From NCBI GenBank assembly GCA_963737635.1, contig CAVTTL010000001.1, positions 416,001 to 480,000 on the forward strand: DNA of 64,000 nt. Reading direction: 5' to 3'. Shown here in pieces: positions 9,105-63,125 of the stretch. Position 1 is the first letter of the stretch; every line of letters starts with the position of its first letter. Source of the DNA: an uncultured Methanoregulaceae archaeon. GTDB lineage: Archaea > Halobacteriota > Methanomicrobia > Methanomicrobiales > Methanospirillaceae. The notes under the pieces are model-generated. The model had not been told where the DNA came from. It did not search any database and was given only the letters and a program-made list of their open reading frames with translations. The translations under genes and the position numbers were made by a program.

Positions 9105-9158
9105 GGTTCTGTTGCGTTGTCGGGACTTCTCAGGTAGGTGTTGCATGGCGGGACTTTT
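9105..9158 (+). repeat. Left terminal inverted repeat (54 bp)
   Basis: GGTTCTGTTGCGTTGTCGGGACTTCTCAGGTAGGTGTTGCATGGCGGGACTTTT; exact reverse complement at 13047-13100. Confidence 0.97.
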
Positions 9159-9180
9159 GGAGCAATAGATACAAGTCAGA

Positions 9181-9543
9181 TCAACCAAATTGATTTTTGT
9201 TTAAAATCAGTTCTTTTATTTGAATAAATATTGATAACTTTTTTTTTGTAAATTTGAATTTAATGGAATTTACCGCAGTACAAAAAATAGTGATCAATCC
9301 ACATGCATCTCCATCAAAGTCCAATATAGACCCTATCATAATCACAGATTTTCGAATCGCTAAAAGATCTCTATCCGTTTCGGCATAACTTTCGATAGTG
9401 CTTAATAATGATAGGATTTCATTCATCTTTGAAATTTTTTCAGATTTAGTTAATTCTTTATTAGTTAAAAGTTCTGACGTTATTTTAGAAATTTCAATCT
9501 TTTTATTGACCAGCATAAGCCGCTCAGCCTCGGTCAGTTCCAT
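9181..9543 (-). CDS. Orphan passenger protein, 120 aa
   Basis: Intact AT-rich ORF inside the element with a TATA-like stretch upstream; no family confidently recognised. Confidence 0.6.
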   Translation of the reverse strand: MELTEAERLMLVNKKIEISKITSELLTNKELTKSEKISKMNEILSLLSTIESYAETDRDLLAIRKSVIMIGSILDFDGDACGLITIFCTAVNSIKFKFTKKKLSIFIQIKELILNKNQFG

Positions 9544-9602
9544 GAACCATTATTTGTGGATGTTTATAATATGGTTTTGGGTAGGAAAAACAAAAAAGAG
9601 AG

Positions 9603-10787
9603 TTATTTTACCGATAATCCGATCATTGTCTCCCACCGGTTCCCCAAAAGATTGATCGGGATATTTGCCATTTGAGCCGGTGTTAATCCCCCAATTCCCT
9701 GATGTGGCCGGATGTAATTGTAATATGTCTGCATCCCGGCTACAAACTCCTCAGCGCCAACTGAGCTATCAAGGCTTCTCATTACCTTCGTCCTCTCTCT
9801 GAAAGTTCCGTTCAAGCGTTCGAGGATATTGTTGTTGGGCTTTGTCTCAAAGTCCTTTAACCGGATGTGTGGGTTCTGGATCGGCTCAGCAATATCGTAG
9901 AACTCGGCTTTAACGGCTTTCTTGTATGCCTGTAGCCCATCGGTGACTATTGCATCAGGTCGTCGGTTCGTAACTTCTTTCGCCTTCTTTAACGGAATAC
10001 GGGCATCTTCCACAAACCTCGTCTCAGTAATCTGGCAAGCCAAGAGGTAGCGCGTCTTCGCATCCATGAGGTTCCAGATCCAGTGATAGTGTTTCTTCTC
10101 ACCCTCTTTCTTGATGAACACCGTCGTTTCATCACAGTGCCAAATGTTGCCTACTTCCGCCTCGTACTTCTCAGCGTATTTTCCGAGTAACTGAGTGTAT
10201 TTCTTGATCCAGCGCATCGGGGTTGTAGGATCAACTTCCCGGTCGTGGAACTGTTGGATGTGATCGCTAATCTTCCTGAGGCTAACGCCTTTAAAATAAA
10301 GGTCGAGAGTGAGCGTGATTACTTTGGGATCGTGCTTTACCCGGCTGAATCCAACATTGATAACAAACCGGTGGTTGCAGTCTTTGCATCCGTACCGCTG
10401 GATCTCTCCATATGAGTTCGCCCTTACCCCTCGCTTTACAGTATTCTTACTTTTACAGATTGGACAGTTGATTCTCCCAATTTCATCACCCTGTATTTTT
10501 TGGGCTTTAATATCAGTTTCTACATCTACTTTAATTTTTAGGGAGAACTGAACGGCGTAAATGTGTTTACAAATAACGTTGCGGGTTTCGTGATCGGGGC
10601 AAGTGCATTTCCAGTCGTGCATGTGATTCCGATCCCGGCCTTTTACAAAGACACGAGAAACCCGGTAGTAAGCATCTTTTGACTGAGAACGCACATCCCA
10701 TTCGTTCTTTCCCATCGATATGATAGTGTCTGGCTCTGAGAGGATTTTTAGACCTCTTAACTCTCTTGGGTTGCTGAACTGATCCAT
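9603..10787 (-). CDS. IS6/IS240-type DDE transposase with N-terminal SWIM finger and Zn ribbon
   Basis: CTCPD..CKH (SWIM), CPIC..CKDC ribbon, HTH, WHCDET / VTDG / NNILER triad, YNYIRPH; AGGAG RBS before ATG 10787. Confidence 0.93.
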   Translation of the reverse strand: MDQFSNPRELRGLKILSEPDTIISMGKNEWDVRSQSKDAYYRVSRVFVKGRDRNHMHDWKCTCPDHETRNVICKHIYAVQFSLKIKVDVETDIKAQKIQGDEIGRINCPICKSKNTVKRGVRANSYGEIQRYGCKDCNHRFVINVGFSRVKHDPKVITLTLDLYFKGVSLRKISDHIQQFHDREVDPTTPMRWIKKYTQLLGKYAEKYEAEVGNIWHCDETTVFIKKEGEKKHYHWIWNLMDAKTRYLLACQITETRFVEDARIPLKKAKEVTNRRPDAIVTDGLQAYKKAVKAEFYDIAEPIQNPHIRLKDFETKPNNNILERLNGTFRERTKVMRSLDSSVGAEEFVAGMQTYYNYIRPHQGIGGLTPAQMANIPINLLGNRWETMIGLSVK

Positions 10788-10918
10788 CTTTGTTATCTCC
10801 TTGTTAGTTCTATGTATATACATTGTTCTAACAAGTATTTAATTGTTGTTGTTTTGTTGTAACAAAGATGCAACAATGTTGCGTAGATTTATATACAAAA
10901 TTGAACAAAGTAATTTCC

Positions 10919-11074
10919 ATGACTGGACAAATGGACGTTCACACATCAGCCTATCAGGTGCTTGACAAAACAGTGAAATCTATCGGGAACTCTGGCGGCG
11001 TCTTGGTTCCAAAAAAGTGGGTGGGGAAGAAAGTGAAGATCCTGTTATTGGAAGAAGTGATGGAAGAAGAATAA
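10919..11074 (+). CDS. DUF2080-like transposase-associated small protein (AbrB-like)
   Basis: KTVKSIGNSGGVLVPKKWVGKKVKIL; TTTATATA box at 10888-10895. Confidence 0.8.
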   Translation: MTGQMDVHTSAYQVLDKTVKSIGNSGGVLVPKKWVGKKVKILLLEEVMEEE

Positions 11075-11092
11075 GCAATCCTATTTTTCAAG

Positions 11093-11170
11093 TCTCGAGA
11101 AGTTTGGATCTCGAGCAGTGTTTAGAAGGATTCTCGAGCAAATCCAGTCTCGAGTAATTTGAGTCTCGAG
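11093..11170. repeat. Array of five TCTCGAG motifs (palindromic CTCGAG core)
   Basis: CTCGAG at 11094, 11110, 11133, 11149, 11165 (spacing 16, 23, 16, 16), just upstream of TTTTATAA at 11185-11192. Confidence 0.85.
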
Positions 11171-11215
11171 AAACAAATGGATAATTTTATAATTTGCTGA
11201 ATGTACGATCATTCT

Positions 11216-12340
11216 ATGGAGCAAACAAAACTTGTAAACGAGATGGAGGAAACAAAAGACGCCGATATTGACATAAAACCCTCTATAAAGTTCTTGAATA
11301 CAAAACAAAAAGAACTCTTCACAACTGTAGTAGATTATAATTTGGGTACATTAGCAAACTTGGTATCACAAGAAATAATTGAGCTATCTCCAAGATTTCA
11401 AAGAAGATCTCGTTGGGACGCAACAAAAAAATCAAAGCTTATAGAATCGTTTTTAATGAACGTTCCAGTCCCTCAGATATTTCTGAATGAAGATTTAACC
11501 GGTAGATATTCGATAATTGATGGGAAACAGAGATTAACTGCCATACATGATTTTTTATACGGTGGATTAATCTTAACTGATTTGGAAGTTTTTAGCGATC
11601 TAAACGGTAAAAATTTTGAAAGTCTTCCGATACAGCATAAATCAACTTTACAAGCAAGAGCAATTCTACGAGCTGTAATTATTTTAAAACAATCCAACAA
11701 GACGATAAAATATGAAGTTTTCCGTCGATTAAATACCGGTGGAGTTGAACTCAATGCTCAGGAAATCCGAAATAGTGTTGCCCCCAGTAAATTTAATGAT
11801 ATGTTACTCGAGGTGTCGGAGAACAAAAAATTCCATAAACTTCTGAATATAAAAGACAAAAATACATCTAAAACCTATCAGGAAATGCTCGACGTAGAAT
11901 TTGTTTTGAGATATTGCACATTTAAAGATATTTGGCAGACTTTTTCTGGGGGAATCGGAAGTAGCATGGATGATTTTATGGATGACAACCAAAAAACTCC
12001 AAAGGACAAATGTAATGAAATGCGAAAAGATTTCTTAAATACATTGGATGTAGTTGAAGCGTGCTTTGGGGAGGATGCATTCAAACGATATTTACCAGAT
12101 AAAGAACGCTGGAGACCAAAGGTTTTGGCTTCGTTATACGATGCTCAAATGTTTGCGTGTAGTGGATTAACTGTCTCTCGAGTAATCCCCCACAAAGATG
12201 AAATTGTAAGCAATTATAAAGAGTTGTTTTCAGATCTGGAGTTCCGCAAAACAATTGACGCTGGTACAAACACCCCGTCATATTTCATAGGTAGGATAAC
12301 CAAGGTTAAAAAGATCATAACAGATGCTATCCGTTGTTAG
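11216..12340 (+). CDS. DUF262 (ParB/Srx-like, GmrSD N-terminal-type) protein
   Basis: PRFQRR..W, IDGKQRL, FRRLNTGG..L motifs; start 11216 fits a leaderless transcript from the TATA at 11185 (alternative start 11201). Confidence 0.9.
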   Translation: MEQTKLVNEMEETKDADIDIKPSIKFLNTKQKELFTTVVDYNLGTLANLVSQEIIELSPRFQRRSRWDATKKSKLIESFLMNVPVPQIFLNEDLTGRYSIIDGKQRLTAIHDFLYGGLILTDLEVFSDLNGKNFESLPIQHKSTLQARAILRAVIILKQSNKTIKYEVFRRLNTGGVELNAQEIRNSVAPSKFNDMLLEVSENKKFHKLLNIKDKNTSKTYQEMLDVEFVLRYCTFKDIWQTFSGGIGSSMDDFMDDNQKTPKDKCNEMRKDFLNTLDVVEACFGEDAFKRYLPDKERWRPKVLASLYDAQMFACSGLTVSRVIPHKDEIVSNYKELFSDLEFRKTIDAGTNTPSYFIGRITKVKKIITDAIRC

Positions 12341-12349
12341 AGGAATATT

Positions 12350-13036
12350 ATGAGACAACCATCTTTTGCTCTCGAGAATTTTAAAAAATCGATTGCAATT
12401 GCTGAGACTTTGCTAACTCGAGAGAGGAGATACAAAGAACCCCTACAAATAAAAAATTTTAAGATAGTTCAAGGTCTCCGGGGAGGTGCGTTGGTATTGA
12501 TGGTGGCATCGTTCGAAAATTACCTCAAAGAGGTGATGGAAGAACGATTGAATGAATTGTCTTCATCTTCAAAATTTAATTTTTCTTCATTACCCCCTAA
12601 AATTATCCAGCATAATCACAAAGTGACTCTCTCTCGATCATTGCGTGCTCCGGACGATTTTGATACCCCTCAAAAAATCTCGAGGTTGGTGACAGCTTCT
12701 GAATTTGTCACATACAAACGGATTAATCCTGAAGCATTCAGTGTTGCTATTAGAAGCAACCCAAATTCGGAAAGACTCGAGGACTTTTTCAAATCAATTG
12801 GACATAAAGATTTTTTTAAGAGAACCGAGGAAAAATATGAAAATAAAGCTGGAAAAAAAACTGATGTCAAAGGTACATTAGATTCTATTATTCGTCAAAG
12901 ACATCTGGTGGCTCATTATGCAAATGCTATTTCCCTGAGTCGATATGAATTAAATGAGTATGTAACGTTTTTAAAAAACCTTTCAGAAATATGTGATGAT
13001 GAATTATATATTAGAATCCAATCACTCAACAAATAG
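12350..13036 (+). CDS. HEPN nuclease (MAE_28990 / RiboL-PSP-HEPN-like)
   Basis: ALVLMVASFENYLKE helix and Rx4H motif RHLVAH; 9 bp after the DUF262 stop. Confidence 0.82.
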   Translation: MRQPSFALENFKKSIAIAETLLTRERRYKEPLQIKNFKIVQGLRGGALVLMVASFENYLKEVMEERLNELSSSSKFNFSSLPPKIIQHNHKVTLSRSLRAPDDFDTPQKISRLVTASEFVTYKRINPEAFSVAIRSNPNSERLEDFFKSIGHKDFFKRTEEKYENKAGKKTDVKGTLDSIIRQRHLVAHYANAISLSRYELNEYVTFLKNLSEICDDELYIRIQSLNK

Positions 13037-13046
13037 ACTCTTTCTA

Positions 13047-13100
13047 AAAAGTCCCGCCATGCAACACCTACCTGAGAAGTCCCGACAACGCAACAGAACC
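13047..13100 (-). repeat. Right terminal inverted repeat (54 bp)
   Basis: Exact reverse complement of 9105-9158, followed by GACTAACG. Confidence 0.97.
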
Positions 13101-13695
13101 GACTAACGTTAGATTCAACAACACAAGGGACTAACATTAATGGACCTGCTATATACGTCACACCTAGCCAAATCTCTACATTTAATCTCAATGATGTCGA
13201 TCTGACCATTAACGGTGTGGATTATGGCCAATATACGATCTCCCAAATATATATCGGCAGTTACAGTTCCTTCACATCCACTCTTACGTTGAATGTCCCT
13301 TCGCAATCAGCACAGACAGAGTTCGATGCAAATGGGGCATGCGTGATATGTAACGCGGTCAGTTCTACTCCGATCACCGTCTATAATCTGGGGATGGGGG
13401 CAGGTGGAATTAACCTTGGACCTATGGCGACTATTTATTACAGCGGTGGAGCGACCGGGTATTCTCTTTCCTGATCCCTGAATGTTATTTTAAATAATTT
13501 CTTGCATTTTTTTTACTTGTTCTACCTCAGGCACATTCCCTCGGGAAGTAGTTCGGGTTTCGATTCAGCACGATGTTTCAATGGGGGCAGAGGTAAATGA
13601 CTAAGATTCGGCTCTTCAGAAACTCTTGGTTTCCGATCAATTACAAAAACGTATCGACTGAAGGGACAGAGTCCCCTATATTTTAATCAGCTTTT

Positions 13696-15262
13696 TCACC
13701 GTGAGGGATGGGGAATTATATGCGAGTTCCTGCTCACGAGCAGATTATACGCATCGTGTGCCAGGTTATACCGCACCAGCACATTCCGGATCTCAAGCAC
13801 CGCGCCATATGGCGCGGACCCCAGCTCCCGGTTAGACTGGGCGATGTGAAATGCAGGCAGCACTGCATATACCGGTTTTTCTGCTGAACCGTCGCAGAGT
13901 CTAAACAAATGAGTTTCCGCATCTCCGAGATCCTCGGACATTTTCGCCGCCACTATCGTGATCCGTTTTCCCACGTTCAGATGTACTTTGGACAGACGCA
14001 GCGCTTTCGTATCTTTCTGGATGTGACAGGATGCGCGAACCTTCCCATCCTTCCGTAATATTACATAGCTGTACTTGATGTCCGTATTCACGTACCGGAA
14101 CGCCTCATTGCATCCCGCAAGAGTATTCATGATCCGGGTGGGTCGAATTGAGGGAGCGGTCTGAAAACTCCAGCATCGATCCGGAGTGCAGTTCGTGCCC
14201 CAGACGAACGTGCAGGGGGCATAGATCGAGAGACCCTGCTTCTTTAACGCGAGGGCAAGGATACGCAGGCCGGTGGAAGTCGCTTCTTCCGCGGGTTCGA
14301 TTATGAGGAGCGTACCGTCCGGTGCAAGCCGTTCTGCATAGTTCATCACAATATCCGCACGCGCTGCAACCGACAGTCCAGCCAGTTCGTTGAGTACGTT
14401 GGAAAAGATCATCAGATCGACGCTGTCAGGGAGCGGCACGTCCCGGGGGGAGGTGATATCAGACTTCCTTGGAAGACTCTATCGTTACTTGGGGGTCCTG
14501 TAAGATAACACTCCGGGCCAGAGCATCAAATGCTTCGATGTGCTCTTTTGAGCGTTCGACAGAATAGACTGTCGCCCGGGCTGTATCCAGACACATCCAG
14601 AAATCCTCGATGGCAAGAGGTATGACCCCCGGCCCGGTGCCGAGATCGAGGATTGTCATCTGCTGTTTCAGCAGCCCGTCACGGGCAAGCTGCGCAAGAA
14701 GGTGCCGGGCCTGCATGAAGTAGACCGGGAAATGGTACGCAAGGTAGCCGAGCACTGAATAGCCTTTCGTGTACTGGAGCGACCGTTTGTCTGTCGGTTT
14801 CCAGTAATCGTCTTTCTGGGCGACAATCGCGCGGCGGAGCCGTTCGAGAATCACCGGATCAGACCAGTCTTTGCCGGTTTTTCTGGTGATGTACTGCTCG
14901 ATGGCCGTTTCAAGAACAGAAGGCATGGCAGAGAGGGAAAGGTACGCGTTAAGGCGTTTTTCTTCGGCAGTATTCAGGATGTAAGAGTGTGGCGGCAGCT
15001 GCCGCGAAATAGTATAGTCTTCACCGGTCTTTTGTGCGGCAAGACCAAGTCCGGCAAGATGCGGTTGGATCGCCGCATACATCTGCCCGATGGTCAGCGG
15101 TTCGTCAAGATAGGCTGCAATCTCAGAAAGCAGGAAGGCCGGTTTTGTGCCGGACACGTATTTTATCGTTGAAAGAAACTGCTTTGCGGCCATGATCTGC
15201 CGGAATCTTTGCCGCGTGCCCTCATACATCTTTGGATGGCTATCCCTCGTCAGCTCTGCCAC
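13696..15262 (-). CDS. Class I SAM-dependent methyltransferase (Rsm22-like), frameshift near 14470
   Basis: YLAYHFP, ILDLGTGPG in the 5' ORF; SNVLNEL, LIIEPA, IYAPC...CW, YSYVIL in the 3' ORF. Confidence 0.8.
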
Positions 15263-22111: not shown

Positions 22112-22246
22112 ATCGTCGAAAGAATATAGGAATCCCGGGTGCATAAACATCCCGGTACTGCTGTTTTCCGCCAGCGACTTTTTGATGCACCGCGACACAC
22201 TACTAGGATACAACCCCACGAGCGTTTGCCGATGCAGGACATAGCT

Positions 22247-23139
22247 ATGCTGCAGAACGAGATCCTGCAGCTCAAGAAGAAAAAGAACGCGATCATCCTC
22301 GCACATAACTACCAGCGTGCCGAGGTCCAAGATATCGCTGACGTAACCGGGGATTCACTGGAACTGGCGCGTGCTGCGGCGGCGATGAACGGTGACATTA
22401 TTGTTTTCTGCGGAGTCGATTTCATGGCAGAAACCGCCGCCATTCTCGCCCCGGAAAAAACGGTTCTGTTACCTGCTCCGGATGCCTGCTGTCCCATGGC
22501 GGGCATGGTTACCGCGGCAGAGTCAGGTTCGCCCGTGCCCGCCACCCTGATGCCGCAGTTGTCTGTTACGTAAATACCACTGCTGACGTCAAAGCAGAAA
22601 GCGATATATGCTGTACCTCAGCAAACGCGGTGAACGTGGTAAATGCAGTACAGGATGATACGGTAATTTTTGTCCCGGATAAAAACCTCGGGCAATACGT
22701 GGCGCGGTTCACCAAAAAGACGGTTCTTTCCTGGGAAGGGTTCTGTCTGGTTCATGACCGCTATACCCCTGCTGATGTGGCGATTGCGAAACAGGCGCAC
22801 CCGGACGCTGCCGTGCTCGTCCATCCGGAGTGCCGGCCCGAGATTATCGATCTTGCCGATCAGGTTGCAAGCACTTCGGGGATTGTCCGACACGTCAAAT
22901 CTGCATCCGGAAGTGAGTTTATTATTGGCACGGAAATCGGAATCCTTCACCGGCTTGCAAAAGAGTGCCCGGACAAACGATGTTACCCACTCTCGGAAAA
23001 AGCCGTCTGCGTGAACATGAAAAAAACCACTCTTGCACATGTCCGGGACGCGCTGGTAACGACCAGACCCGTGATCACGGTACCGGATGAGACTGCGGCC
23101 CGTGCCCGCAATGCCATCGAACGCATGCTCACGCTCTGA
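22247..23139 (+). CDS. nadA: Quinolinate synthase A, frameshift near 22520
   Basis: [26 protein letters not shown]; then YVNT, CTSANA, PDKNLG, HPEC, CVNMK. Confidence 0.92.
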
Positions 23140-24150: not shown

Positions 24151-25307
24151 TCAACAGGATCTTCTTTTTCCCGTCTGTCTTCGAACTATCGTTTGCGAAA
24201 AAGCACCCATGAACCGGTCCCGGATCTGTTCCGGGGACAGGGGAATATTGGGGACATCACTGTTGCCGGGACAGATACGGGTATGTATGAATGATGGGCC
24301 CTTACCCACCGCATCGACCAGTGCCGTCTCGAGCTCGCACGCCTCGTGCACAGTTACCGACTGTGTGAAACCCGCACCAAGCGCCATAAGTGCAAGGTCT
24401 GCGGTGTCCTGCCCGGGTCGGGGCTGGTTACCGGTGCTGCCAAAGACACCGTTGTCAAGGGCGACAACAGTGAGGTTTGCAGGTGCTGCCGCTGCTATCA
24501 CCGGAAGGATTGCAGAACCGAGCAGGCTGCCGTCACCATCGATCACGATCACTCTTTTGTCCGGCCGCGCCGTTGCAATGCCGAGCCCGATCGCAGAGGC
24601 CTGCGTGTAACTACCCAGCATGTAGAAGTTCTCCGGCAGTCCCGGGTCGCATAAAGCTCTTTTGACGGGACGCCTATGTTTGCGACTAAGACTTCATCAT
24701 GTATTGTTCCCGCAATGGCCCGGATCGCTTCCAACCGGCTCATCACGGGAGTACGCCATTTTCGTTCGTAGCAGATTGAAAATGGCCGGGAAGGAACAGG
24801 CAGACACTGTACACTGCAGTTGGTCTCTTCAAGGCATTCCGGCCGTATGAGAATAACGTGCGGAGTTCGATTTTTGTATGCCTCGGCGACGGCATCTCCG
24901 ATCTCAAGCTGCGAATCAGGCCCGGAAACGTCTGTCCAAGGGATACCTGCTGCGGAAAGAATGGCCGGAAGAGGGCGGTTGAACGGGATCTGGGCAGGAA
25001 TCTTTTCCCCTTCGCACCCCCGCCAGCTTGCAAGAATCGGAAGCGGCAGGCCAAAGGTCACCGAAAGGGAAAGAATCGCGTTGAGCATGTTTCCAAGACC
25101 CGAGCTCTGGAGGGCGACCGCCGGGCGGGAACCGGCAAGGTACACACCGGCGGATATGCCAACGCCGTCCTCTTCCCGGGCCAGGCCGATATGCCGGAAG
25201 TTTTGAGGCAACTTAAAAAAAAGCCCTTTCGCCCGGTCACAGGGAACCGAGCTGATAATATCGATCCTCTGTCTTTTTAGTTCGCTGATAATCTGATCTT
25301 CATCCAT
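24151..25307 (-). CDS. comDE: Fused sulfopyruvate decarboxylase ComDE, frameshift near 24635
   Basis: SVPCD, REEDGVG, QSSGLGN, NIGVPSKEL; then NFYMLGS, DGDGSLL, DNG..GSTGNQ ThDP motif. Confidence 0.9.
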
Positions 25308-26571
25308 AGTGCGAAATCCACTCTTTGAGTTCTGCCTTGATATCGTCGCAAAGCCCGGGTGTGGTCACTGCAGACGATTTGATCGGGAAGAGGGAATAAT
25401 CTTCCCGGACCCTCTCGTATCCACCACCGGTAATGTTGAGGAGGATATAATCATTCGCCCCTATAGCCCCGGTCTCTGTTGAGTGCATAAGTGCGGCCAG
25501 AGCAATCGCTGCCGCAGGGTCAGGATCGATTTCCACAGTATCCCGGATAAGCTGTGACGCTTTCTTTCCCTCTTCATTTGATACTGAGTACATACAGCCA
25601 TCTGTTGCCTGCAACGCGTCAAAGAGCCCGCCCGCAATTCCATAGGGAGGCGTTCGGTTGGTAAGGACCGGGGACATGACTGCATGTATGGCGTTGGACA
25701 TATCTGGCATATCAAGATCCGGGTCGATTGTCCGCCTTCCCTGCTGCCATGCCGAGACCATCGGTGTAAACGGTTTATTCTGGGCGAGATGGAGGCGGGG
25801 AAGCGATGCACCGTACCTGCTATCTTCGATAAGCCGGAGAGCTGCCTCCCACGCAGCAATAGCCCCCGTTCCGCTGCCAACCGCTTGGAAATAATGATCG
25901 GGAATTCTGCCAAGGGTGACTGCTGCATCGAGCATCACCGTTCCCATACCGTCCCTGCGGGCGACGTTCTTTGCTCCACCTTCGGGTACGCATCCGGGAA
26001 CACAAGCAAGTGCGTTGCTCACCGTAATCGCATCTGTGTAATCTCCATCGACGGCAACAAGGAATATATCATGCGCAGGAGTCGTTGTCCAGAGACGCGA
26101 GACTGCATCCTTGGGCACAACAATAACCACGGGTTTTTTGTACTGCGCTGATAGCCCGGCAAAAGCCCGGCCGGTGTTTCCGGCAGAGGCGATCACCGGG
26201 ACCTGTTTTCCTAATTCCCAGAGCCGTTGCAGGGTGGGCAGGGCTTCGAGTTCCTTGAACGAACCGGTCGTTAGGAATGCCTCATGTTCAGGGCAGTACC
26301 CGGAAAATGAGATGGCAAGCCGGGAAAGGCCAGTCTCCCGGGAAAGCGCGGTACTGGTAAACGTCACCGGGCCTCCCGAGGGAAGAAGGGGGTGCGTCAC
26401 CGGCAGCCAGCAGAGATACCGGAAGATTCCACGGTGAGGTGCAAGATTTAACCTTCGGCCGCTGTACTCAGTGCGAAGCAGGGAATTGTGGCGGGCAGGG
26501 CACGATAGGGAGGTCGTATCAGGAACGATCTCTCCACCGCCGATGCACCGGATTCGGTACTTGGGAATCAT
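25300..26571 (-). CDS. Cysteate synthase (threonine-synthase-like PLP enzyme)
   Basis: TGSFKELEA, ASAGNTGRAF, EGGAKNVARRDGMGT, YFQAVGSGTG; overlaps the comDE start. Confidence 0.88.
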   Translation of the reverse strand: MIPKYRIRCIGGGEIVPDTTSLSCPARHNSLLRTEYSGRRLNLAPHRGIFRYLCWLPVTHPLLPSGGPVTFTSTALSRETGLSRLAISFSGYCPEHEAFLTTGSFKELEALPTLQRLWELGKQVPVIASAGNTGRAFAGLSAQYKKPVVIVVPKDAVSRLWTTTPAHDIFLVAVDGDYTDAITVSNALACVPGCVPEGGAKNVARRDGMGTVMLDAAVTLGRIPDHYFQAVGSGTGAIAAWEAALRLIEDSRYGASLPRLHLAQNKPFTPMVSAWQQGRRTIDPDLDMPDMSNAIHAVMSPVLTNRTPPYGIAGGLFDALQATDGCMYSVSNEEGKKASQLIRDTVEIDPDPAAAIALAALMHSTETGAIGANDYILLNITGGGYERVREDYSLFPIKSSAVTTPGLCDDIKAELKEWISHYG

Positions 26572-27908: not shown

Positions 27909-28718
27909 GCCGGCACCCTAGCCTTTTTGTGAGTGGCTGGTGTCTCGGCCGGATCGCTGACAAGCTCCCCGGCGCGAATTTTTTCCCGGAGATCCCAGAG
28001 GAACGCATCAATACCTGTGACAGTCTCAATGATAGCGCTTTCCTGATCTCCCGGTTCGAGCACGCCATCCACAGCCCCGTTTTTCATTACGATCCGCCGG
28101 TCGGTGATGAGCGCAAGGTAGGGATCGTGTGTGACGAAGATCACGGCTTTTTTGTATTCCCGCAGGCATGAGATGACCCGTCCCTTATTGATGCCGGCGT
28201 TTTCCACTTCATCGAGAAGGAGGATCGGCGTCTGCCCGATCAGGATCGCATCGGCGATAAGAAGCGACCGGGTTTGGCCGCCCGATAGCGCGGTCATACG
28301 CATGGATTCAGAAATCTTCTCACCAGTAAACTCATTTGCGAGGCTCAGTTGTGCGGGCGATCAGGCACTGCGCCCCGTTATCCCGAGCCTGTATATGAAG
28401 AGCGAGGAATCGGCTGACCGTGAGATCGGCGATGACCCGGGTGTTCTGGGTGATCAGAGCGATGGGTTTTTTTGCCGGGTCGCGTACAAGGTCTTCTGAG
28501 GGCTCCTCGCCATTCACAAGAATGCTTCGTCCTGTGACTGTGTCGTCCTGCGCAAGGACTTCGATATCATTGATAAACGCAGACTTTCCTGAACCGGTCG
28601 GCCCAACGATCGAGAGGGTGTCGCCCGGGCGGATCACGATCCGGTTAAAGCCTTCCTTTTCCCCGTCCCTGTTGGTGCCAGGGAGTATTGTCAGCTCGTA
28701 TGCCTGCTCGCTGTACAT
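27905..28718 (-). CDS. Stand-alone ABC-type ATPase, frameshift near 28345
   Basis: GPTGSGKS Walker A; LSGGQ, LLLDE, VTHD in the 3' part. Confidence 0.87.
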
Positions 28719-28821
28719 CGCAGAATTATCGGTCGGCCGATTCAAATATCTTTCCAATTTTACATTAAAATTATCCTCATAGTAATAATTATAATCTTAA
28801 AAACACCACATAAAGGATAAT

Positions 28822-48312: not shown

Positions 48313-49606
48313 TCACCGCTGCCAGGGTGGGCGCAGCATAGTGCCGGTCAGATCGGCGAGGGTCTCACCACGCCGCATGAGCGCGGCTTCGTTCCCGTGG
48401 ACTAGCACTTCGGGGCAACGGGGCCGGCCGTTGTATTGGGAGGACATGGCGTACCCGTAGGCCCCGGCGTCCAGCACCGCTATCAGATCACCGGAAGCAA
48501 GATCCGGTAGTTTCCGGTCAGCGGCAAAGATGTCTCCGGTCTCGCATATAGGCCCGGTAACAGTATATTCTGTGGTTAAGGCGGCAGCTGCACGGTTAGC
48601 CACAACAACTTCGTGATAGGCATCATACATCGCAGGCCGGATAAGAAGGTTGAAGCCGGCGTCCACATTTGCAAACCTTTTGTGTGCTGACTTTGTCGAA
48701 TTGACCCGGGTGAGAAGTACGGTCGAATCCGCTACGAGGAATCGTCCCGGCTCGACCCAGAGTTCCGGAGTTATCCCGGCCGCCTTGATTCCGGCAAGGA
48801 AGACCGGCATGACCGCATTCGCGTAAGCCTCCGGGGTTGGTGCCGGATCGGTGTCATGGTGGTAAGGGACACCGAGACCACCGCCGAGGTCAAGGAACTC
48901 CAGGTTCACACCCATGCCGGAAAGTTCGCGGGCGATCCTCACCATCACTTCTGCGGCACGGGCAAATGGCTCAACGTCGAGGATCTGTGACCCGATGTGG
49001 CAGTGGATACCGACCGGTTTTATGTTTTTGCAGGAAAGGGCCTCCCGGTAAGCGGCCGGGATCTGATCGTGGGGGATCCCGAACTTGCTTGTGGCAAGAC
49101 CGGTTGCGATCTTCGGATGGGTCGGGACTTCGAGCGCAGGGTTGACCCGAAACGAGATCTCAGCGATTTTTTTGGCCTCCCGGGCCGCTGCATCGAGTTG
49201 GTGGAGCTCGTCAAGAGAGTCAACTGATACTTTCACTCCGTGTTGGACGGCAAGGGCCAGATCGCTTTTCGTTTTCGAACTGCCATTAAAGAGCAGTTTT
49301 TTTGCCGGGCATGCCCGCTTCAAGGGCAAGCATGAGTTCGCCACTGGAAAAGACATCGGCCCCGGCACCCAGCTGCGCAAGCGCCCTCATCACCGCCAGG
49401 TTGCCGTTTGCCTTTGCCGCAAAGAGCACTTGGACCTTCGGGTACCGGGTGGACAGAGACTGCAGGTAGTCCCTGAAATGTTCACAGATCCGATCCTCAC
49501 TTGTTACATAGAGCGGCGTCCCATAGGTTTCCGCAAGGGAAACGCAGTCCTGGCTGCCAATATTGAGATGCCCATTTCGTATCGTAAGATGCGGAGGGAG
49601 TTTCAC
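48313..49606 (-). CDS. lysA: Diaminopimelate decarboxylase, frameshift near 49300
   Basis: YGTPLYV, FAAKAN, SSGEL; SKFG, HIGSQ, EPGR, CETGD, GAYG. Confidence 0.94.
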
Positions 49607-52721: not shown

Positions 52722-54380
52722 ATGAAAGAAATATCCGTGATCGTAGGCGGCAGAGCCGGTGACGGGATTACCAATGCCGGGGCAATCGTCGCCCAGCTCT
52801 TCAACCATCTCGGCTACTATGTCTATACTTATACTGATTACCCCTCGCTCATCAGAGGGGGGCATAATTTTGCCCTTATCCGTGCGGCAGATATGCCTAT
52901 CGGCGCATATAACAACCGGATTGACTACCTTATTGCACTCAACCAGGAGACCGCCACCCTGCATCTCCAAAACTGCCCGGACTGTACTGTGGTGGCAAAT
53001 GCCGATCTGGTAAAATCGCTGCAAAGCGGCCAGACCATCTCAATCAATACTATTCTCAAGGAAGAATCGGCCCCGCCCATCATGGGGAACTCGGCGATGA
53101 TCGGCGCCTTTGCAAAATCGGCAGGGATTCCTTGGGATATTGTCGGCGAGGTATTCCGCCGCCATATGCCAAAGGCGGCAGACGAAAATATCCGGGTTGC
53201 CAAGCGGGCGTACCGACCAGATCCAGACTATCCGGACGGTGTCAGCGATTCCCGGCGGAACACATAGCATGCTCTCTGGCAACGAGGCGATAGGTCTTGG
53301 GCTGGTCGCCGGCGGCCTTACGACGTATATTTCCTACCCGATGACACCGTCCTCGTCGCTTCTCCACTACCTTCCGGGAATGCCGAACGGCTGGGGATCA
53401 CGGTTATCCACCCGGAGAACGAGATCGGGGTCATCCTTATGGCCCTTGGTTGCGCCGCCGCCGGGAGAAAGACCGCAGTCGGCACATCGGGAGGTGGGTT
53501 CTGCCTGATGAACGAAGGGCTTTCGTTTGCCGGTATTGCCGAATTCCCGCTAGTACTCGTGGTCTCCCAGAGAACCGGTCCTTCGACCGGTCTCCCGACG
53601 TACACTGGCCAGGCGGATCTTCAGTTCGTGCTGCATGCCGGGCAGGGAGAGTTTCCCCGGCTCGTCACAGCACCCGCGGATCCCGGTGAAGCGTACATCT
53701 GGTCTGCGGCGGCAATCTGTCTTGCGTGGAAATACCAGATCCCGGCATTTGTGCTCGCCGACAAAACCCTCTCTGAAGGTATCTACAGCGTCGATTACGA
53801 CAAACTCGTAAGTTTGCCGGCCCCGGAGCCAGTACTCTGGAACGGCGACGGCATCTACCAGCGGTACCGCGACACCCCGTCCGGTATCTCGCCTCTTGCC
53901 TTCCCAGGCAGGAAAGATGCGATCGTCAAGATGAATAGCTACGCCCATGACGAAGATGGTATCACAACTGAAGAGGCCGGGCTGGTCACCCAGATGGCAG
54001 ATAAGCGCCGGAAAAAGGAGACGAGTCTTAGGGATGAACTGAACCGGTACCCGTGTGTCAGCATCCGGGGCATAGCCGATGCTCCCACCGCACTTCTCTG
54101 TTGGGGATCGGTCCGGAATGCGTGCGACGAAGTCGCGGCAAAGTTAAGGCTCCGGGTCATTCAGCCGGTAGTGCTTTCGCCCTTCCCGGACCAGCAGTTC
54201 TCTGTCGCGTGCCAAGGTGTAGAGCAGCTGATTGCGGTTGAGGAAAATGCCACCGGCCAGCTCGCGGCGCTCGCACGCGAGCATGGTGTGGTTGCCAAGA
54301 AGATAGTGCTCAAGTATGACGGTCGCCCCTTCACACCGGACGAACTGCTCACAAAAGTACAGGAGGTGATGGCTCCATGA
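52722..54380 (+). CDS. korA: 2-oxoacid:ferredoxin oxidoreductase alpha subunit (gamma-alpha fusion), frameshifts near 53210 and 53372
   Basis: GGRAGDG, YPSLIRGGHN, GNEA, YPMTPSS, TSGGGF, QRTGPSTGLPT, EENATGQ. Confidence 0.88.
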
Positions 54381-57862: not shown

Positions 57863-57934
57863 AAATACTCTCATTGCTATTGTGTAAGCACTATCGAAAC
57901 GGTTATTCCCTACGGCACTCCACATGTGGTCGTT

Positions 57935-59119
57935 ATGGTGTCCCGTGAACTTATTTCAGGAGTATACTGGGTCGGGGCGTTTGATTTTGACCGGCGGATC
58001 TTTGATGAACTGATCCCGCTGCCGGAAGGTACGAGTTACAACTCGTATCTCGTACAGGGCAGCGAAAAAACCGCCCTTATCGATACGGTCGATCCTTCTA
58101 AGGAATATGACCTCATCTCGAACCTTGTAAAACTGGGTATCGAAACTATCGATTATATCGTGATCAATCACGCCGAGCAGGATCACTCCGGTGCCCTCCC
58201 GATGATCCTGGAGTTCTACCCGGATGCGAAGGTAGTTACGAATGCAAAGTGCCGGGATCTTCTTGTCGCCTTGCTGCATATCCCCCAGGAACGCTTCTCG
58301 GTGATCGCGGATGGGGATACCCTGTCACTCGGGAACCGGACCTTCCGGTTTTTCCTCACACCCTGGACACACTGGCCTGAAACCCAGATCACGTTCCTTG
58401 AGGAGGATAAGATCCTCTTTCCCTGCGATCTCTTCGGTTTCCACGCCGCTACGAGCGAACTGTTCATACATGACGAAGCCTGGGCCTACCGGTCAGCGAA
58501 GCGGTATTATGCCGAGATCATGATGCCGTTTCACGGCAGTATCAAAGGCTATGTTGAGAAAGTCAGGGAGCTCTCCCCGGTGATGATCGCACCAAGCCAC
58601 GGACCGGTCAACAGGAACCCGCAGTTCATTCTTGACGCGTATGCTGACTGGGTATCGGATACGGTCAAAAACGAGGTGGTTATCCCCTATGTCTCGATGC
58701 ACGGCAGCACCGCAAAGATGGTGGATCACCTCACCGGAGCGCTTATCGCCCGGGGGATTACGGTCCGGCCATTTAACCTTACCCGGACTGATATCGGCGA
58801 ACTGGCGCTCGCTTTGGTGGACGCGGCAACGATCGTGATCGCTACACCCACCGTCCTTTTTGGTCCCCACCCGTCGGTCGTATCGGCGACGTACCTCGCA
58901 AACGCCTTGCGGCCCAAGACCCGGTTTGCCTCCGTGATATGCTCTTATGGATGGGGAGGCAAGACCACCGATACGATCACAAAGATGCTCGACCATGTCA
59001 AAGTCGAACTCATCCCCCCGGTGATGGTTCTTGGTGAACCCGGCGAAGCGACCATGCAGGACCTTGACCGGCTGGCAGATGAAATCTTAAAGAAGCATAA
59101 AGAAATTAACATCGTATAA
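57935..59119 (+). CDS. fprA: Flavodiiron protein (FprA family)
   Basis: GTSYNSYL, HAEQDHSG, HWPE, PSHG, SMHGST, SYGWGG. Confidence 0.93.
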   Translation: MVSRELISGVYWVGAFDFDRRIFDELIPLPEGTSYNSYLVQGSEKTALIDTVDPSKEYDLISNLVKLGIETIDYIVINHAEQDHSGALPMILEFYPDAKVVTNAKCRDLLVALLHIPQERFSVIADGDTLSLGNRTFRFFLTPWTHWPETQITFLEEDKILFPCDLFGFHAATSELFIHDEAWAYRSAKRYYAEIMMPFHGSIKGYVEKVRELSPVMIAPSHGPVNRNPQFILDAYADWVSDTVKNEVVIPYVSMHGSTAKMVDHLTGALIARGITVRPFNLTRTDIGELALALVDAATIVIATPTVLFGPHPSVVSATYLANALRPKTRFASVICSYGWGGKTTDTITKMLDHVKVELIPPVMVLGEPGEATMQDLDRLADEILKKHKEINIV

Positions 59120-59136
59120 GGAAAGGAGAAGTAACT

Positions 59137-59517
59137 ATGACGAAACTCTTCGAGGTTTATAAGTGCGAAGTCTGCGGAAACATCGTGATGGTTATCGGCG
59201 CATCCGGCGGCACGACATCGTGCTGCGGGAAACCGATGGTTCTCCAGCAGGAAAAGACTGCCGACCAAGGTAAGGAGAAACATGTACCCGTCATCGAAAA
59301 GACCCCGGGGGGAATCATCGTCAAGGTCGGCTCCATTCCCCACCCGATGGAAGCGGCACATTACATCCAGTGGATAGAGGTCCGTTCCGGCGACAATACG
59401 TATTTCAAGTGGCTCCGGCCCGGGGAAAAGCCCGAAGCCGAGTTCCCGATAAACGATACCAATGTAAAAGCACGAGAATACTGTAGTGTCCACGGTCTCT
59501 GGACCAATAAAATATAA
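59137..59517 (+). CDS. dfx: Desulfoferrodoxin (2Fe superoxide reductase)
   Basis: CEVCGN, CCG, EKHVP, HPM..HYI, CSVHGLW. Confidence 0.95.
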   Translation: MTKLFEVYKCEVCGNIVMVIGASGGTTSCCGKPMVLQQEKTADQGKEKHVPVIEKTPGGIIVKVGSIPHPMEAAHYIQWIEVRSGDNTYFKWLRPGEKPEAEFPINDTNVKAREYCSVHGLWTNKI

Positions 59518-59545: not shown

Positions 59546-59650
59546 TCAGGTGTACCGTTCCTGTATTCCGTAAAAATGTGAGCCGAAAAACAAATCCACT
59601 TTTGTTAACATCAGGAGATCTAATATAAACTGCAGGCTCATAGTACGGTA

Positions 59651-60463
59651 ATGAAACAGATCGCCCTGTACGGGAAAGGTGGTATCGGAAAGTCCACAAC
59701 GTCGGCAAACCTCTCCGCCGCCCTCTCTCTTGCAGGGTACGATATCCTCCAGATAGGATGCGACCCCAAGCGCGACAGCACCCGGATGCTAATGCAGGGA
59801 AAGCTCATCCCCACGGTGATGGACCTAGTTCGCGAGCGGGGTACCGCATCGGTGACACCTGCTGACGTTGTCTACTCCGGCTTTAACGGCGTTCGCTGTG
59901 TTGAAGCCGGGGGACCTGAACCCGGTGTCGGCTGTGCCGGCAGGGGGATCATAGCCACGTTCCAGCTGCTGGAAAAGTTTGGAACGCTCACGGGCGACGT
60001 GATTGTCTACGACGTACTAGGCGACGTGGTCTGCGGCGGATTTGCCATGCCGATGCGGGAGGGCTATGCGCAGGAAGTTTACCTTGTTACCTCCGGGGAA
60101 TTGATGTCTCTTTACGCAGCCAATAACATCTGCAAAGCGATCCAGCGCCTGAGCGCCCGGCCAAAGAGCAGATGCCGGCTTGCCGGTGTTATCTGTAACG
60201 CCAAGAACCAGCCACGGGAAGAGGATCTCGTGGCCGAATTTGCCCGCCGGGTCAACAGCCATCTTATCCAGTTCATTCCCCGGGATCGCTCGGTGCAGCT
60301 TGCCGAGCTGAACCGCAGAACGGTGATCGAGTACGAGCCTGGCTCAGCTCAAGCCAAGGTATACCGCGACCTTGCCGCCCGGGTTATGGAGAATACCCGA
60401 CTTACCATTCCTACCCCTCTTGAGATTGATGAACTTGAGGCCCTTGCCATCGAATTTATGTAG
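59651..60463 (+). CDS. NifH-like Fe protein (nitrogenase-like group IV)
   Basis: [36 protein letters not shown]. Confidence 0.92.
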
Positions 60464-61469
60464 GTCTGCTGGCTGTACTCTCACGGGCGCGTTGTCTGTC
60501 ACAACCCACGTCCGTGACGCAATCACGGTCGTGCACGGGCCTGCAGGATGCACGCATCACAATTTTTCCCTCCTGCATGCCACGAGCCTCGACAACGATC
60601 GTATTACTCTCCCCCCCCTCGTTTCGACCGGGCTCTCAGAGATCGAGGTGATCTTCGGCGGCGAGGGTACCCTCGACCGGACACTTGATCAGGTAATCGC
60701 ACGCGAACCCGGGGCTGTTTTTGTTCTCTCAACCTGTATCGTGGAGACCATCGGCGACGACGTCGGGATGATCTGCGACACAAAGACTGGGATACCGGTC
60801 ATCGTGGTACCTACCGCAGGTTTTCTTGGCGGGTCATTCCAGACCGGCGTTAATAATGCACTTGTCTCCCTTGCTGGGATGGCAGAGCCGGCAAAGGGGA
60901 ACGGGCTGGTGAACATTATCGGCGAGAAGAACCTTGAATATGAGGTCGACGAAAACTTCGCCGAGGTCTCCCGGCTGCTTGCTCTGCTTGGCCTCTCCGT
61001 AAATATCCGGTTCATCCATGACCTCACGACCGGGCAGATCGCTTCACTGGGGGCTGCCCGGCTCAATATACTCCGCGATCCTTCGCTTATACCCGTTGGG
61101 GAATACCTTAAAGAGCGTTTCAAAACGCCCTATATCCCTGCCTACCCGGTGGGGATCTCCGGCACCATCCCCTTCCTCGAATCTGTTGCCGGTGCGTGCG
61201 GTATCGACCCCTGCCATGCAGTGGATGATGAACGTGCGCTCCACCAGGAGATATTCGAAGATTTTGCAGATATTGCCGGATCAGGGATTTCTTTTTCATC
61301 GTCCCACCCCGATCCGGAAGGGAACCGGGTGGCGCAGGATATAGCACTGGCCCTCAGGCTCGATATCACCCCTTCAGGGCGCCCGATGCCGGCACCAGTG
61401 ACACTGCCAATTGGCAGCGCCGGCGTGCGGCGGATGCTCCACCGGTGGAGGAGAGTTCTCCATGCTTGA
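60429..61469 (+). CDS. Short nitrogenase component-1-like subunit (D-like)
   Basis: [24 protein letters not shown]; start overlaps the H gene. Confidence 0.85.
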
Positions 61470-62593
61470 CTGCAGGACACCGCTGTGGCCCTGTGCTATG
61501 ACTGGTGCTGCGGCATGCCTTGCCGGATTTAAAGGGATTACAGTCGTCATCCACGGTTCCAGCGGATGCTATTATTACCCGGCAACCCTTCTTCATGCCC
61601 CCCTGCACGGCACCTTCATTCTTGAAAACGAAGTGGTATTCGGGTCAGGAGATCGGCTTCGCAAAGTAATCGGTGAGTCTGTCCGGCAAAGGAAACAGAA
61701 TAGCGGTCATCACTACCTGCGTCCCGTCACTCCTTGGCGAAGATATAAAATCAATGCTCGACGAAAACGACGTCATTTTAGTCGACAGCCCGGGATTTGC
61801 CGGGGATCTGGAGACCGGGTACCAGGCGGCACTTGCTTCGCTTTCCCCGGCTGCAGACCCGGGCGGCCCGGCGTGAATATCGACGGTGTCTCCCTTTCGG
61901 ACCCGTTTTACGAGGGGAACCTGGAGGAAATTTCCCGGATCCTGCACCGCGCCGGGATTCCTGTAGGGACGGTTTTTTGCCGAGACTTATCCGCAATGGC
62001 GGAACACGCATCGCCACTGACCATCGGTACTAATGAGGATTTTGGATCCGGTGTCGGAAAATATGTTGGTGGAACCTTGGGGATACCTGTTCTCCGCGCG
62101 ACCTGCGAAAGGCTTTCTGCAGTCTACGAAGATGCAGATATGAACCCTGTTTTTACCGAACTTGATCTCGAGGAGGAACGGGTGATCCACATCTGTGACA
62201 AGTTCCTCCGCCGCTACGATCCTCCCGGAGTTGCAGTCTTTGCCGGTGCTTCGTACGCGTTCTTTGCTGCCGATACCCTGAAGCGCTATCTTGATGCCCA
62301 GATTCTTGTTGTTGGCACACGTAACGACCCTCCTGAGCAACCCGGTACACGGTACAGAGTGGAAAAAATTATGGGACTGGAGGAGATTGATACCACGATC
62401 AGGAAAATGAACCCGGATCTCGTGATAGGATCATCGTTCGAACGATCGTTGTGTGTCGATCGGGCCTTTGTGGGGATAATCCCGCCGCTTCGCGGAAGGG
62501 TAAGACTTGCACACACCCCGCTTGCCGGGTACTAGCGGCACACTCCATTTTATCGAAGAATCCTTGAACGCCTGCATGGACAAAAAGGATTAG
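61462..62593 (+). CDS. Short nitrogenase component-1-like subunit (K-like), frameshifts near 61678, 61865 and 62528
   Basis: PCAMTGA, HGSSGC, TTCVPSLLGED (alternate frame), PDLVIGSSFE. Confidence 0.8.
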
Positions 62594-62705
62594 GTACTGG
62601 ATAGGGACGACTTTCCTCATTTACCTTTCACTTTCACTCCGCGCACGGCTCCGGGTTATATACCGGTCGACAAAGATGCACTATCACGACAGAAGGTGGT
62701 CGTGT

Positions 62706-63125
62706 ATGATGCAAAAGGCAGGTTACATCCAGAGAACAGGATGTAGGGCAATTGACCGTGACGGTGGAATCCACGAAGTTGTGGAACTGCATGTCATGGG
62801 CGCCCGGTATGCAATCCGACTAGGGGATCTGGCAAAAGGAATCTCAGGACGACAGGTCGTTGTTCAAGTGGAGGCACTCGTACGTGAGTGGAACTACTAC
62901 CTGGGCACAACCTGCGGGCTGGCACAGGTGTCAGCCTCCGGCAAGGCCCTCAATATTGAACTCTTCGAGGCAGGGAATTTTACCGTGTCGCTCCTTGCCC
63001 TCAGATCGGTCGTCTACGGGCGGGAACGTCTTGCCAAGATCGCAAGGATACCCAAACAGCCGGCTTCACCTGCCTGGAAAGACCGCAGGCTTACCGGCCA
63101 GCGGCAGCTCGGCGCACTGGTCTGA
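62706..63125 (+). CDS. Hypothetical protein
   Basis: Clean ORF after a TTATATA box; no family assigned. Confidence 0.6.
   Translation: MMQKAGYIQRTGCRAIDRDGGIHEVVELHVMGARYAIRLGDLAKGISGRQVVVQVEALVREWNYYLGTTCGLAQVSASGKALNIELFEAGNFTVSLLALRSVVYGRERLAKIARIPKQPASPAWKDRRLTGQRQLGALV

Follow-up and report, generated by a model that had tools for sequence, protein, structure and literature searches.

Methanogens make F430 with CfbCD, an ATP-driven, two-component enzyme whose catalytic part, CfbD, is a short homodimer (352 residues) encoded by a single gene and devoid of M-cluster ligands. The dark-operative protochlorophyllide oxidoreductase (DPOR; BchLNB) and the chlorophyllide oxidoreductase (COR; BchXYZ) likewise have no M-cluster, and a cluster at the subunit interface feeds the bound tetrapyrrole. 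The members of the superfamily without an M-cluster whose substrates have been directly shown, namely DPOR, COR and CfbCD, all reduce tetrapyrroles. NifDK and NifEN are alpha/beta pairs with six P-cluster cysteine positions, encoded after a NifH-type gene. The operon described here lies in a 64,000-nucleotide (nt) stretch of archaeal DNA, hereafter the window (G000:C1:416001-480000), which belongs to a genome of 2.46 Mb in 4 contigs scored as 90% complete. It consists of a NifH-type gene (H) followed by genes for an alpha-type and a beta-type nitrogenase-like subunit (D and K, labeled NflD-like and NflK-like in Table 1). The order is Methanomicrobiales, going by the source names of the database relatives of D (named Methanoregula sp.). 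The operon is best described as a real, conserved and uncharacterised system composed of cfbC plus an orphan D/K pair. With moderate confidence, the D/K pair is read as a second, order-specific ATP-dependent reductase that would share CfbC.

H is CfbC, by its model score and as the sole NifH-type protein available to CfbD. It passes the NCBIfam model NF033200 (F430_CfbC) with 413.8 bits against a cut-off of 402 (413.3 bits in the genome search) and stays under the cut-off of the nifH model TIGR01287 (382.8 against 394.35 bits). The genome of the window contains two NifH-type genes, H and the nifH of its nif cluster, and the product of the latter reaches 386.9 bits on the CfbC model. Across the order, H orthologues were scored on this model in 17 sampled genomes; all 17 reach 401 to 423 bits, 16 of them over the cut-off and the remaining one, from G025, 0.8 bits short of it. 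The closed, nif-less relatives G026, G027, G028 and G032 each hold a single NifH-type gene at an E value of ≤1e-20, which in all four abuts a D-like gene, and their cfbD (500 to 511 bits) is located 0.16 to 0.9 Mb from H. Because F430 synthesis requires a CfbC and H is the only NifH-type gene of these nif-less cfbD carriers, H must be CfbC. The cfbD of the window's genome lies 1.57 Mb from H and retains the N-terminal HPRP stretch in its product. It is flanked by open reading frames (ORFs) that resemble cfbB and cfbE by eye and are taken here as candidates for these genes. A tree of 45 sequences gives the order's H clade a support of 0.98 and places it beside the CfbC of other families at only 0.39, with NifH outside at 0.75. 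The first-pass annotation of this DNA, made from the sequence alone, had described the triad as neither Nif nor Cfb and had called for confirmation of a separate cfbCD locus. A separate cfbD does exist (TIGR03282, 509.6 bits), but no separate cfbC accompanies it, as H and nifH are the only NifH-type genes. The description holds for D and K, which fall outside the tested Nif and CfbD groups, and fails for H.

D and K belong to none of the groups tested (Nif, NifEN, CfbD and DPOR/COR), judged by model scores and trees. The highest NCBIfam score of D, 111.7 bits on nifE (TIGR01283), compares with a cut-off of 505.1, and further scores are those on BchB (68.1 against 490), BchZ (44.3 against 529), CfbD (37.4 against 268.4) and BchN (36.3 against 420); the Nif, Vnf and Anf DK equivalog models give 50 to 88 bits against cut-offs of 486 to 874. 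Four intact K proteins score 35 to 46 bits on the nifK, CfbD and nifE models alike (CfbD, 35 to 44 against 268.4) and 20 to 33 bits on nifN (cut-off, 326.8). An exhaustive search of 1.84 billion cluster representatives returned 51 proteins at E ≤1e-30, which beyond the orthologues are unnamed nitrogenase-like proteins, many of them NifH-NifD/E-like fusions of 730 to 760 residues. Among 40 representatives scanned, a D/K-type cut-off is passed solely by true NifEN and NifD. Ten representatives were looked up and come from Limnochordia/Bacillota, Nitrospinae, Chloroflexota, Tectomicrobia, Desulfococcaceae and one Methanosarcina; where they carry any name, it is "nitrogenase component 1," the equivalent from the Joint Genome Institute (JGI), or "hypothetical protein." A search of the ESM Atlas returned the family itself alone.

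The trees contain as references BchN/B/Y/Z from a Sulfitobacter plasmid, NifD/K from a Nitratidesulfovibrio plasmid, NifD/K/E/N of the window's genome and five CfbD sequences, with representatives of <300 residues removed, fusions cut and sequences of Mar, Isr, Nfa and Group VI left out. FastTree (154 sequences) places 24 D-like proteins in a clade with a support of 0.68 (0.95 with one extra sequence), grouped with the fusions at 0.988 and next to NifD/NifE at 0.755, while 11 K-like proteins form a clade at 1.0 in the opposite half and CfbD a clade of its own at 1.0. A fast IQ-TREE run with 72 of the 154 sequences, supported by the Shimodaira-Hasegawa-like approximate likelihood ratio test (aLRT), agrees with 93.8 for D-like, 98 with the fusions, 97.7 with NifD/E and 100 for K-like, although neither tree supports the deep nodes well. 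Closest to D stand H-D fusions and unnamed "nitrogenase component 1" proteins, which come from bacteria and from one Methanosarcina. Profile-profile comparison relates D to K at E 1e-23 (30% identity over 232 columns), about as near as D is to NifE/NifD, and relates D and K to CfbD at E 1e-13 and 1e-11, respectively, over ∼100 columns each. The phylogeny outlined in the first-pass annotation, built with Nif, Bch and Cfb references, thus leaves D and K in clades of their own, apart from CfbD, NifD/E/K/N and BchN/B/Y/Z, and the uncharacterised ATP-driven reductase that it had proposed remains the best reading of the sequences. Two other placements were considered and rejected. K stands beside CfbD in the IQ-TREE result at an aLRT of only 61, and its status as a CfbD paralogue was dismissed in view of the equally weak nifK, CfbD and nifE scores and of an hhalign match confined to 99 columns. 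An H-D fusion as the counterpart in sister orders (P0170) has 0 real matches in 91 genomes, the single match being the H domain of G052.

D and K retain the full set of six P-cluster cysteine positions. C16, C41 and C103 are invariant across the D orthologues (24 of 24), as are C11, C36 and C86, together with an extra C4, across those of K (11 of 11). HMMER aligns the cysteines of D to the P-cluster cysteines of NifD from Clostridium pasteurianum and those of K to NifK from Azotobacter vinelandii, at what we take to be the reference positions 62/88/154 of NifD and 70/95/153 of NifK. The position of NifK Ser188 is a glycine in K. The column of NifD Cys275 contains Asp or Glu in D, preceded by an invariant Arg, and D has no conserved His beyond residue 43, hence no equivalent of His442. 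The PF00148 match of D covers profile positions 1 to 252 out of 399. The protein has a short third domain, and its C-terminal tail, LHRWRR, is conserved. The AlphaFold2 model of D has a predicted local distance difference test score (pLDDT) of 86.9 and matches NifD, NifE and BchB in Foldseek with query-normalized template-modeling scores (TMq) of 0.63 to 0.72. The model of the K orthologue from the related genome G012 (pLDDT 88.7) matches VnfK, NifN, AnfK and BchB with TMq values of 0.82 to 0.86.

Compared with CfbCD, the operon has in common an H that passes the CfbC model, a methanogen host, a presumably ATP-driven two-component organization and short catalytic subunits (346 and 376 residues) without M-cluster ligands. 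Unlike CfbD, it has two different subunits that do not pass TIGR03282 and form separate clades. The alpha/beta pair following a NifH-type gene, the six cysteine positions and the location of D in the alpha half with NifD/NifE recall NifDK and NifEN, but D is ∼130 to 180 residues shorter, lacks both Cys275 and His442 equivalents and stays far under the cut-offs of the Nif models. BchB is one of the closest structures (TMq 0.72 with D, 0.84 to 0.86 with K), and DPOR and COR resemble D/K in having no M-cluster. These enzymes ligate their [4Fe-4S] cluster by three Cys plus Asp or by three Cys plus one Cys, according to the available text of the 2026 Chem Rev review and of an mSphere paper from 2024, in contrast to the 3+3(+1) Cys of D/K, which also form separate clades and stay far under the cut-offs of the BchN/B/Y/Z models.

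The remaining nitrogenase-like groups, IV-A to F and VI, are listed in the 2026 Chem Rev review and a 2026 mBio paper, the available text of which describes screens of bacterial genomes; D/K appear to be set apart from them by the reported ligands and cysteine patterns. For Mar and Nfa the sequence comparison is by PDB search, and for all of these groups the descriptions in the review and the mSphere paper are used. Mar (Group IV-C) is likewise a system of H, D and K with P-cluster cysteines, but MarD provides Cys270 and His428 as ligands and depends on MarB or NifB, whereas D has Asp or Glu at the Cys column and no B gene adjacent; PDB matches to the Mar structure are weak (E 5.4e-11 for 9d9u_A and 3.7e-15). 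The D subunit of Nfa (IV-A) has a Cys275 equivalent and a His ligand next to a NifB-type gene, both Cys275 equivalent and adjacent gene being absent from the D/K locus. IsrD (IV-F) keeps only the Cys88 equivalent and adjoins the radical S-adenosylmethionine (SAM) gene isrB, in contrast to the three Cys of D and the absence of an adjacent radical-SAM gene. The nitrogenase-like proteins of Group VI from Elusimicrobia retain no more than four P-cluster Cys out of six in each D/K pair, compared to six of six here. The available text of Dos Santos et al. (2012) reports pairs resembling NifE/NifN, some of them archaeal, in which each subunit has three P-cluster Cys and ligands of the iron-molybdenum cofactor (FeMo-co) are missing, as well as nifH-nifE fusions. 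It names a Methanocorpusculum pair with 2+1 Cys but neither an order-wide operon, nor the identity of H as CfbC, nor a restriction to one order. Family f5 has an extra NifD/E-like gene of 396 residues ∼2.4 kb from cfbD (L054 in G028), which groups with the unnamed P0199, P0203 and P0216 outside the D-like clade and may be of this Methanocorpusculum type. Six genus names of the order have 0 occurrences in the available text of the 2026 review, no genus of the order is named in that of the 2026 mBio paper either, and no published account of the operon was found in a search that excluded supplementary trees and tables, which may hold a lettered Group IV placement.

D-like genes occur at E ≤1e-40 in 45 of 47 genomes from families f1 to f6 of the order, compared to 0 of 253 genomes sampled from the phylum outside these families. 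Of the two genomes without a match, G037 does have D and K on closer look. Two members of the relatives' draw of 41 genomes, G008 (91% complete) and G013 (70%), have paralogue-level matches only, which is attributed to an assembly gap because H is missing there as well. The D-like orthologues are 40 to 84% identical, and the pair is also found in non-diazotrophs. The three genes overlap. In the window the overlap is 35 nt for H/D and 8 nt for D/K, and in 11 of 11 loci from five families it is 20 to 41 nt and 1 to 11 nt, respectively; in genus g5, K lies ∼3 kb off on the opposite strand. Conservation across families in 13 loci is limited to H, D and K, and the remaining neighbors differ by family. 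A flavodiiron (FprA-like) gene and a desulfoferrodoxin gene are located directly upstream of cfbC in the window, and FprA and TrkH genes precede cfbC in other families too. The window's 72 large ORFs include none of nifB, nifE, nifN or nifI, radical-SAM and NifB genes are absent from the window and from the surroundings of the operon in the 13 loci, and no sulfur-metabolism gene is a conserved neighbor there; the genome has its nif cluster and a NifB equivalog elsewhere. The three overlapping genes of the first-pass annotation are therefore borne out by their PF00142 and PF00148 matches. The same is true of its three P-cluster-position cysteines in each subunit, by alignment and orthologue conservation, of the missing FeMo-co ligand region, given the Asp/Glu column and a C-terminal half without conserved His, and of the absence of nifB/E/N/I from the window.

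G234, a 99%-complete genome of the same family, is a natural knockout. Its genes for TrkH and H share a single contig with the small ORF found after K in this family (in the window, G092 and G278; 149 residues, no Pfam match), and D and K are gone. This is a real and clean loss. The H of G234 scores 406 bits on the CfbC model, and its sole PF00148 gene is of the CfbD type. As G234 keeps H without D/K, H must have a job apart from D/K, and D/K are accessory and not needed for F430.

K is readable in the window solely as four in-frame pieces, a three-frame reading caused by three single-nucleotide indels relative to the intact K orthologue of G012 (by DNA alignment; the D proteins of the two genomes are ∼81% identical). 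These indels are very probably assembly errors and not decay. Parts of this DNA are contained in 13 public runs from six studies, and contigs of four runs from four studies were aligned to positions 59600 to 62650. Most of the longer pieces are at least 99% identical to the window, and every contig that spans the indel sites has an intact K frame (three of three covering runs at two sites and four of four at the third), which proves that the intact form exists but not that the broken form is absent, one run possibly being the sample of origin. Run X2 has one more private deletion, at 62105. Compared with G012, the window has ratios of nonsynonymous to synonymous substitution rates (dN/dS) of 0.06 in H, 0.11 in D and 0.03, 0.17 and 0.11 in the three long pieces of K, with 0.33 in the 20-codon end piece; D and K are under purifying selection.

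The alternative, a real and recently decayed pseudogene with private lesions in an operon that is being lost from this genome, is quite unlikely. In its favor is the position of the differences: the three indels and the two substitutions common to the population contigs (61956 G>C, synonymous, and 62351 G>A) all fall inside K, with a chance of ∼0.009 if evenly spread, and run X1 has zero differences over 1.87 kb of H and D. Loss of D/K also has a natural precedent in G234. On the other side stand the intact contigs, the location of two of the three indels within G runs, a dN/dS as low in the K pieces as in D, the only 90% completeness of a 4-contig genome and breaks in other housekeeping genes. 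The nadA gene of the window is split over two frames, the POR_N protein and the Orn/DAP decarboxylase begin at profile positions 52 and 57, so that the first ∼50 positions are absent, and nifE elsewhere in the genome is read in two frames. An ABC ATPase of the window covers only profile positions 8 to 80. This set of frameshifted and N-terminally cut genes suggests an indel-prone assembly. Pseudogenization of K, which would have undone the first-pass interpretation, finds no support in the population contigs or the dN/dS values.

For the second reductase favored here, the following mechanism can be proposed from sequence and analogy. D and K would assemble into a heterotetramer like that of NifDK, which would hold an Fe-S cluster between D and K. 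CfbC would dock over this cluster and, upon ATP hydrolysis, deliver single low-potential electrons to it. The electrons would then pass straight to an organic substrate in the cavity that matches the FeMo-co site of nitrogenase, as in DPOR, COR and CfbCD. CfbC would thereby serve two partners: with CfbD it would act in F430 synthesis, and with D/K it would carry out an accessory reaction, which one lineage has given up. For the substrate, a Ni- or Co-branch tetrapyrrole is a guess at long odds, made because of the link to cfbC and because DPOR, COR and CfbCD all act on tetrapyrroles.

Several points weigh against this proposal. The binding of CfbC to D/K and of D to K is inferred, and G234 demonstrates that D/K are dispensable. 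The weak node at 0.39 in the H tree means that H could have come with D/K instead of being a vertically inherited cfbC. TrkH, FprA, desulfoferrodoxin and a PAS sensor beside the operon depend on the family and give no hint of a substrate, and none of 16 public runs found for the stretch contains RNA data. The clustering of all five differences in K is not what random error predicts. The sole phyletic test of a tetrapyrrole role, for CbiJ, does not discriminate between the order and the phylum sample. PF02571 is absent from five of five genomes of the order, but also from 91 of 91 of the phylum sample and from the Methanosarcina acetivorans control. The idea that D/K replace CbiJ was dropped because this absence spans the phylum sample and is not tied to D/K. 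Finally, P-cluster-type ligands, according to the available text of the 2026 Chem Rev review, are known only along with an M- or L-cluster site, so that any assignment of a cluster type to D/K would be tentative.

A more specific version, an enzyme of CfbC and D/K with an 8Fe P-type cluster and neither M- nor L-cluster that would reduce an order-specific tetrapyrrole or cofactor precursor, is speculative and rather unlikely. If true, it would add a new kind of cofactor architecture to the nitrogenase superfamily and hint at a modified methanogenesis cofactor that is still undiscovered. If CfbC serves two partners, this would be a documented case of one Fe protein common to two functionally different nitrogenase-like enzymes, and it would bear on the organization of F430 synthesis in these organisms. 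The many uncharacterised nitrogenase-like systems are counted among the greatest challenges of the field in the available text of the 2026 review. The present one is unusually tractable, being nearly order-wide, with an Fe protein already known and purifiable, a ligand set (P-cluster cysteines and no M-cluster site) for which we know of no structure, and a relative without D/K for comparison.

It is improbable that D/K act instead as a scaffold or maturase of the NifEN kind, which would handle a complex Fe-S cluster made by NifB together with the Fe protein and reduce no substrate. The best named matches of D are to NifE, by the TIGR01283 score and by PDB NifEN (9i0g, E 3.2e-25), the model of K fits NifN as well as VnfK (TMq 0.82), and the available text of Dos Santos et al. 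(2012) raises a maturase role for such proteins generally. Five of five genomes tested have the NifB equivalog, four of them without nitrogenase, which also weakens the first-pass argument from a missing NifB-type maturase. Against this, the Cys275 column occupied by Asp or Glu in D is that of the L-cluster-binding Cys of NifE/NifD, the scores on the NifE and NifN models are all far under the cut-offs, and G234 lives without D/K. In addition, NifB is universal in methanogens according to the available text of Kaster et al. (2011), whereas D/K are limited to one order.

That D/K cleave C-S bonds for sulfur acquisition, like methylthio-alkane or isethionate reductase, and do not act on a tetrapyrrole is very improbable: the first-pass annotation also suggested an organosulfur substrate, and most uncharacterised Group IV systems with P-cluster Cys adjoin sulfur-metabolism genes in the available text of the 2026 review and the 2026 mBio paper, but the 13 D/K loci lack such a conserved neighbor, the locus is without the Cys275 equivalent and NifB-type gene of MarD and NfaD, D keeps all three Cys where IsrD keeps one, and the Mar structure matches weakly.

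Table 1. Positions of the features discussed (plain numbers are positions in the window; other entries name the genome and contig)
Feature	Position	Strand	Remarks
H, cfbC, NifH-type Fe protein	59651-60463	+	270 aa; PF00142, 361.7 bits
D-like, alpha-type nitrogenase-like subunit (NflD-like)	60429-61469	+	346 aa; PF00148, 184.6 bits
K-like, beta-type nitrogenase-like subunit (NflK-like)	61462-62593	+	∼376 aa with three 1-nt indels allowed for; PF00148 on pieces
In-frame pieces of K	61462-61677, 61679-61860, 61861-62526, 62528-62593	+	
First frameshift of K	61678	+	Extra base; omitted in contigs of 3/3 covering runs (X1, X2, X4); gap versus G012
Second frameshift of K	61860..61861	+	G missing from G run; G added after 61860 in 3/3 covering runs; G012 one base longer
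Third frameshift of K	62527	+	Extra base in G run; omitted in 4/4 covering runs (X1, X2, X4, X7); gap versus G012
Small ORF after K	62676-63125		
FprA-like and desulfoferrodoxin genes	57926-59517		
Low-GC (guanine-plus-cytosine) island	∼8000-14000		GC 0.39-0.45
DDE transposase	9603-10823		
GmrSD-type nuclease	11201-12340		
RiboL-PSP HEPN protein	12350-13036		
nadA, two frames	22139-22573, 22630-23139		
N- and C-halves of thiamine pyrophosphate (TPP) enzyme	24151-25307		Overlapping frames
PALP enzyme	25300-26571		
ABC ATPase	28332-28757		
Orn/DAP decarboxylase, POR_N protein	48313-49380, 53439-54380		
cfbD	G000:C1:2043770-2044816		
nif cluster	G000:C1:1021937-1029327		
nifE	G000:C1:1026748-1027933		
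NifB equivalog	G000:C1:1374028-1374843		
L090, D/K-less locus	G234:C13:26422-30213		TrkH, cfbC, small downstream ORF on one contig
L054, extra NifD/E-like gene of f5	G028:C1:936500-942700		Gene at 1430-2617
Extra NifH-type and D/K-type genes	G020:C1:2063313-2080855		

A scan for promoters and terminators found 3 promoter-like sites where 2.4 are expected and 1 terminator-like site where the expectation is 3.8; with a bacterial consensus and an archaeal host, it is uninformative. The low-GC island of the window, with its transposase, nuclease and HEPN protein, is probably a mobile defence islet. The PALP enzyme lies beside the two halves of the TPP enzyme, the split of which may be another frameshift; the two enzymes resemble what we take to be cysteate synthase and sulfopyruvate decarboxylase of coenzyme M synthesis. 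Within 18 kb, the closed genome G020 from the same genus carries its third NifH-type gene along with three additional D/K-type pairs, a region absent from the window's genome; PF00148-type matches in G020 number 13 in all.

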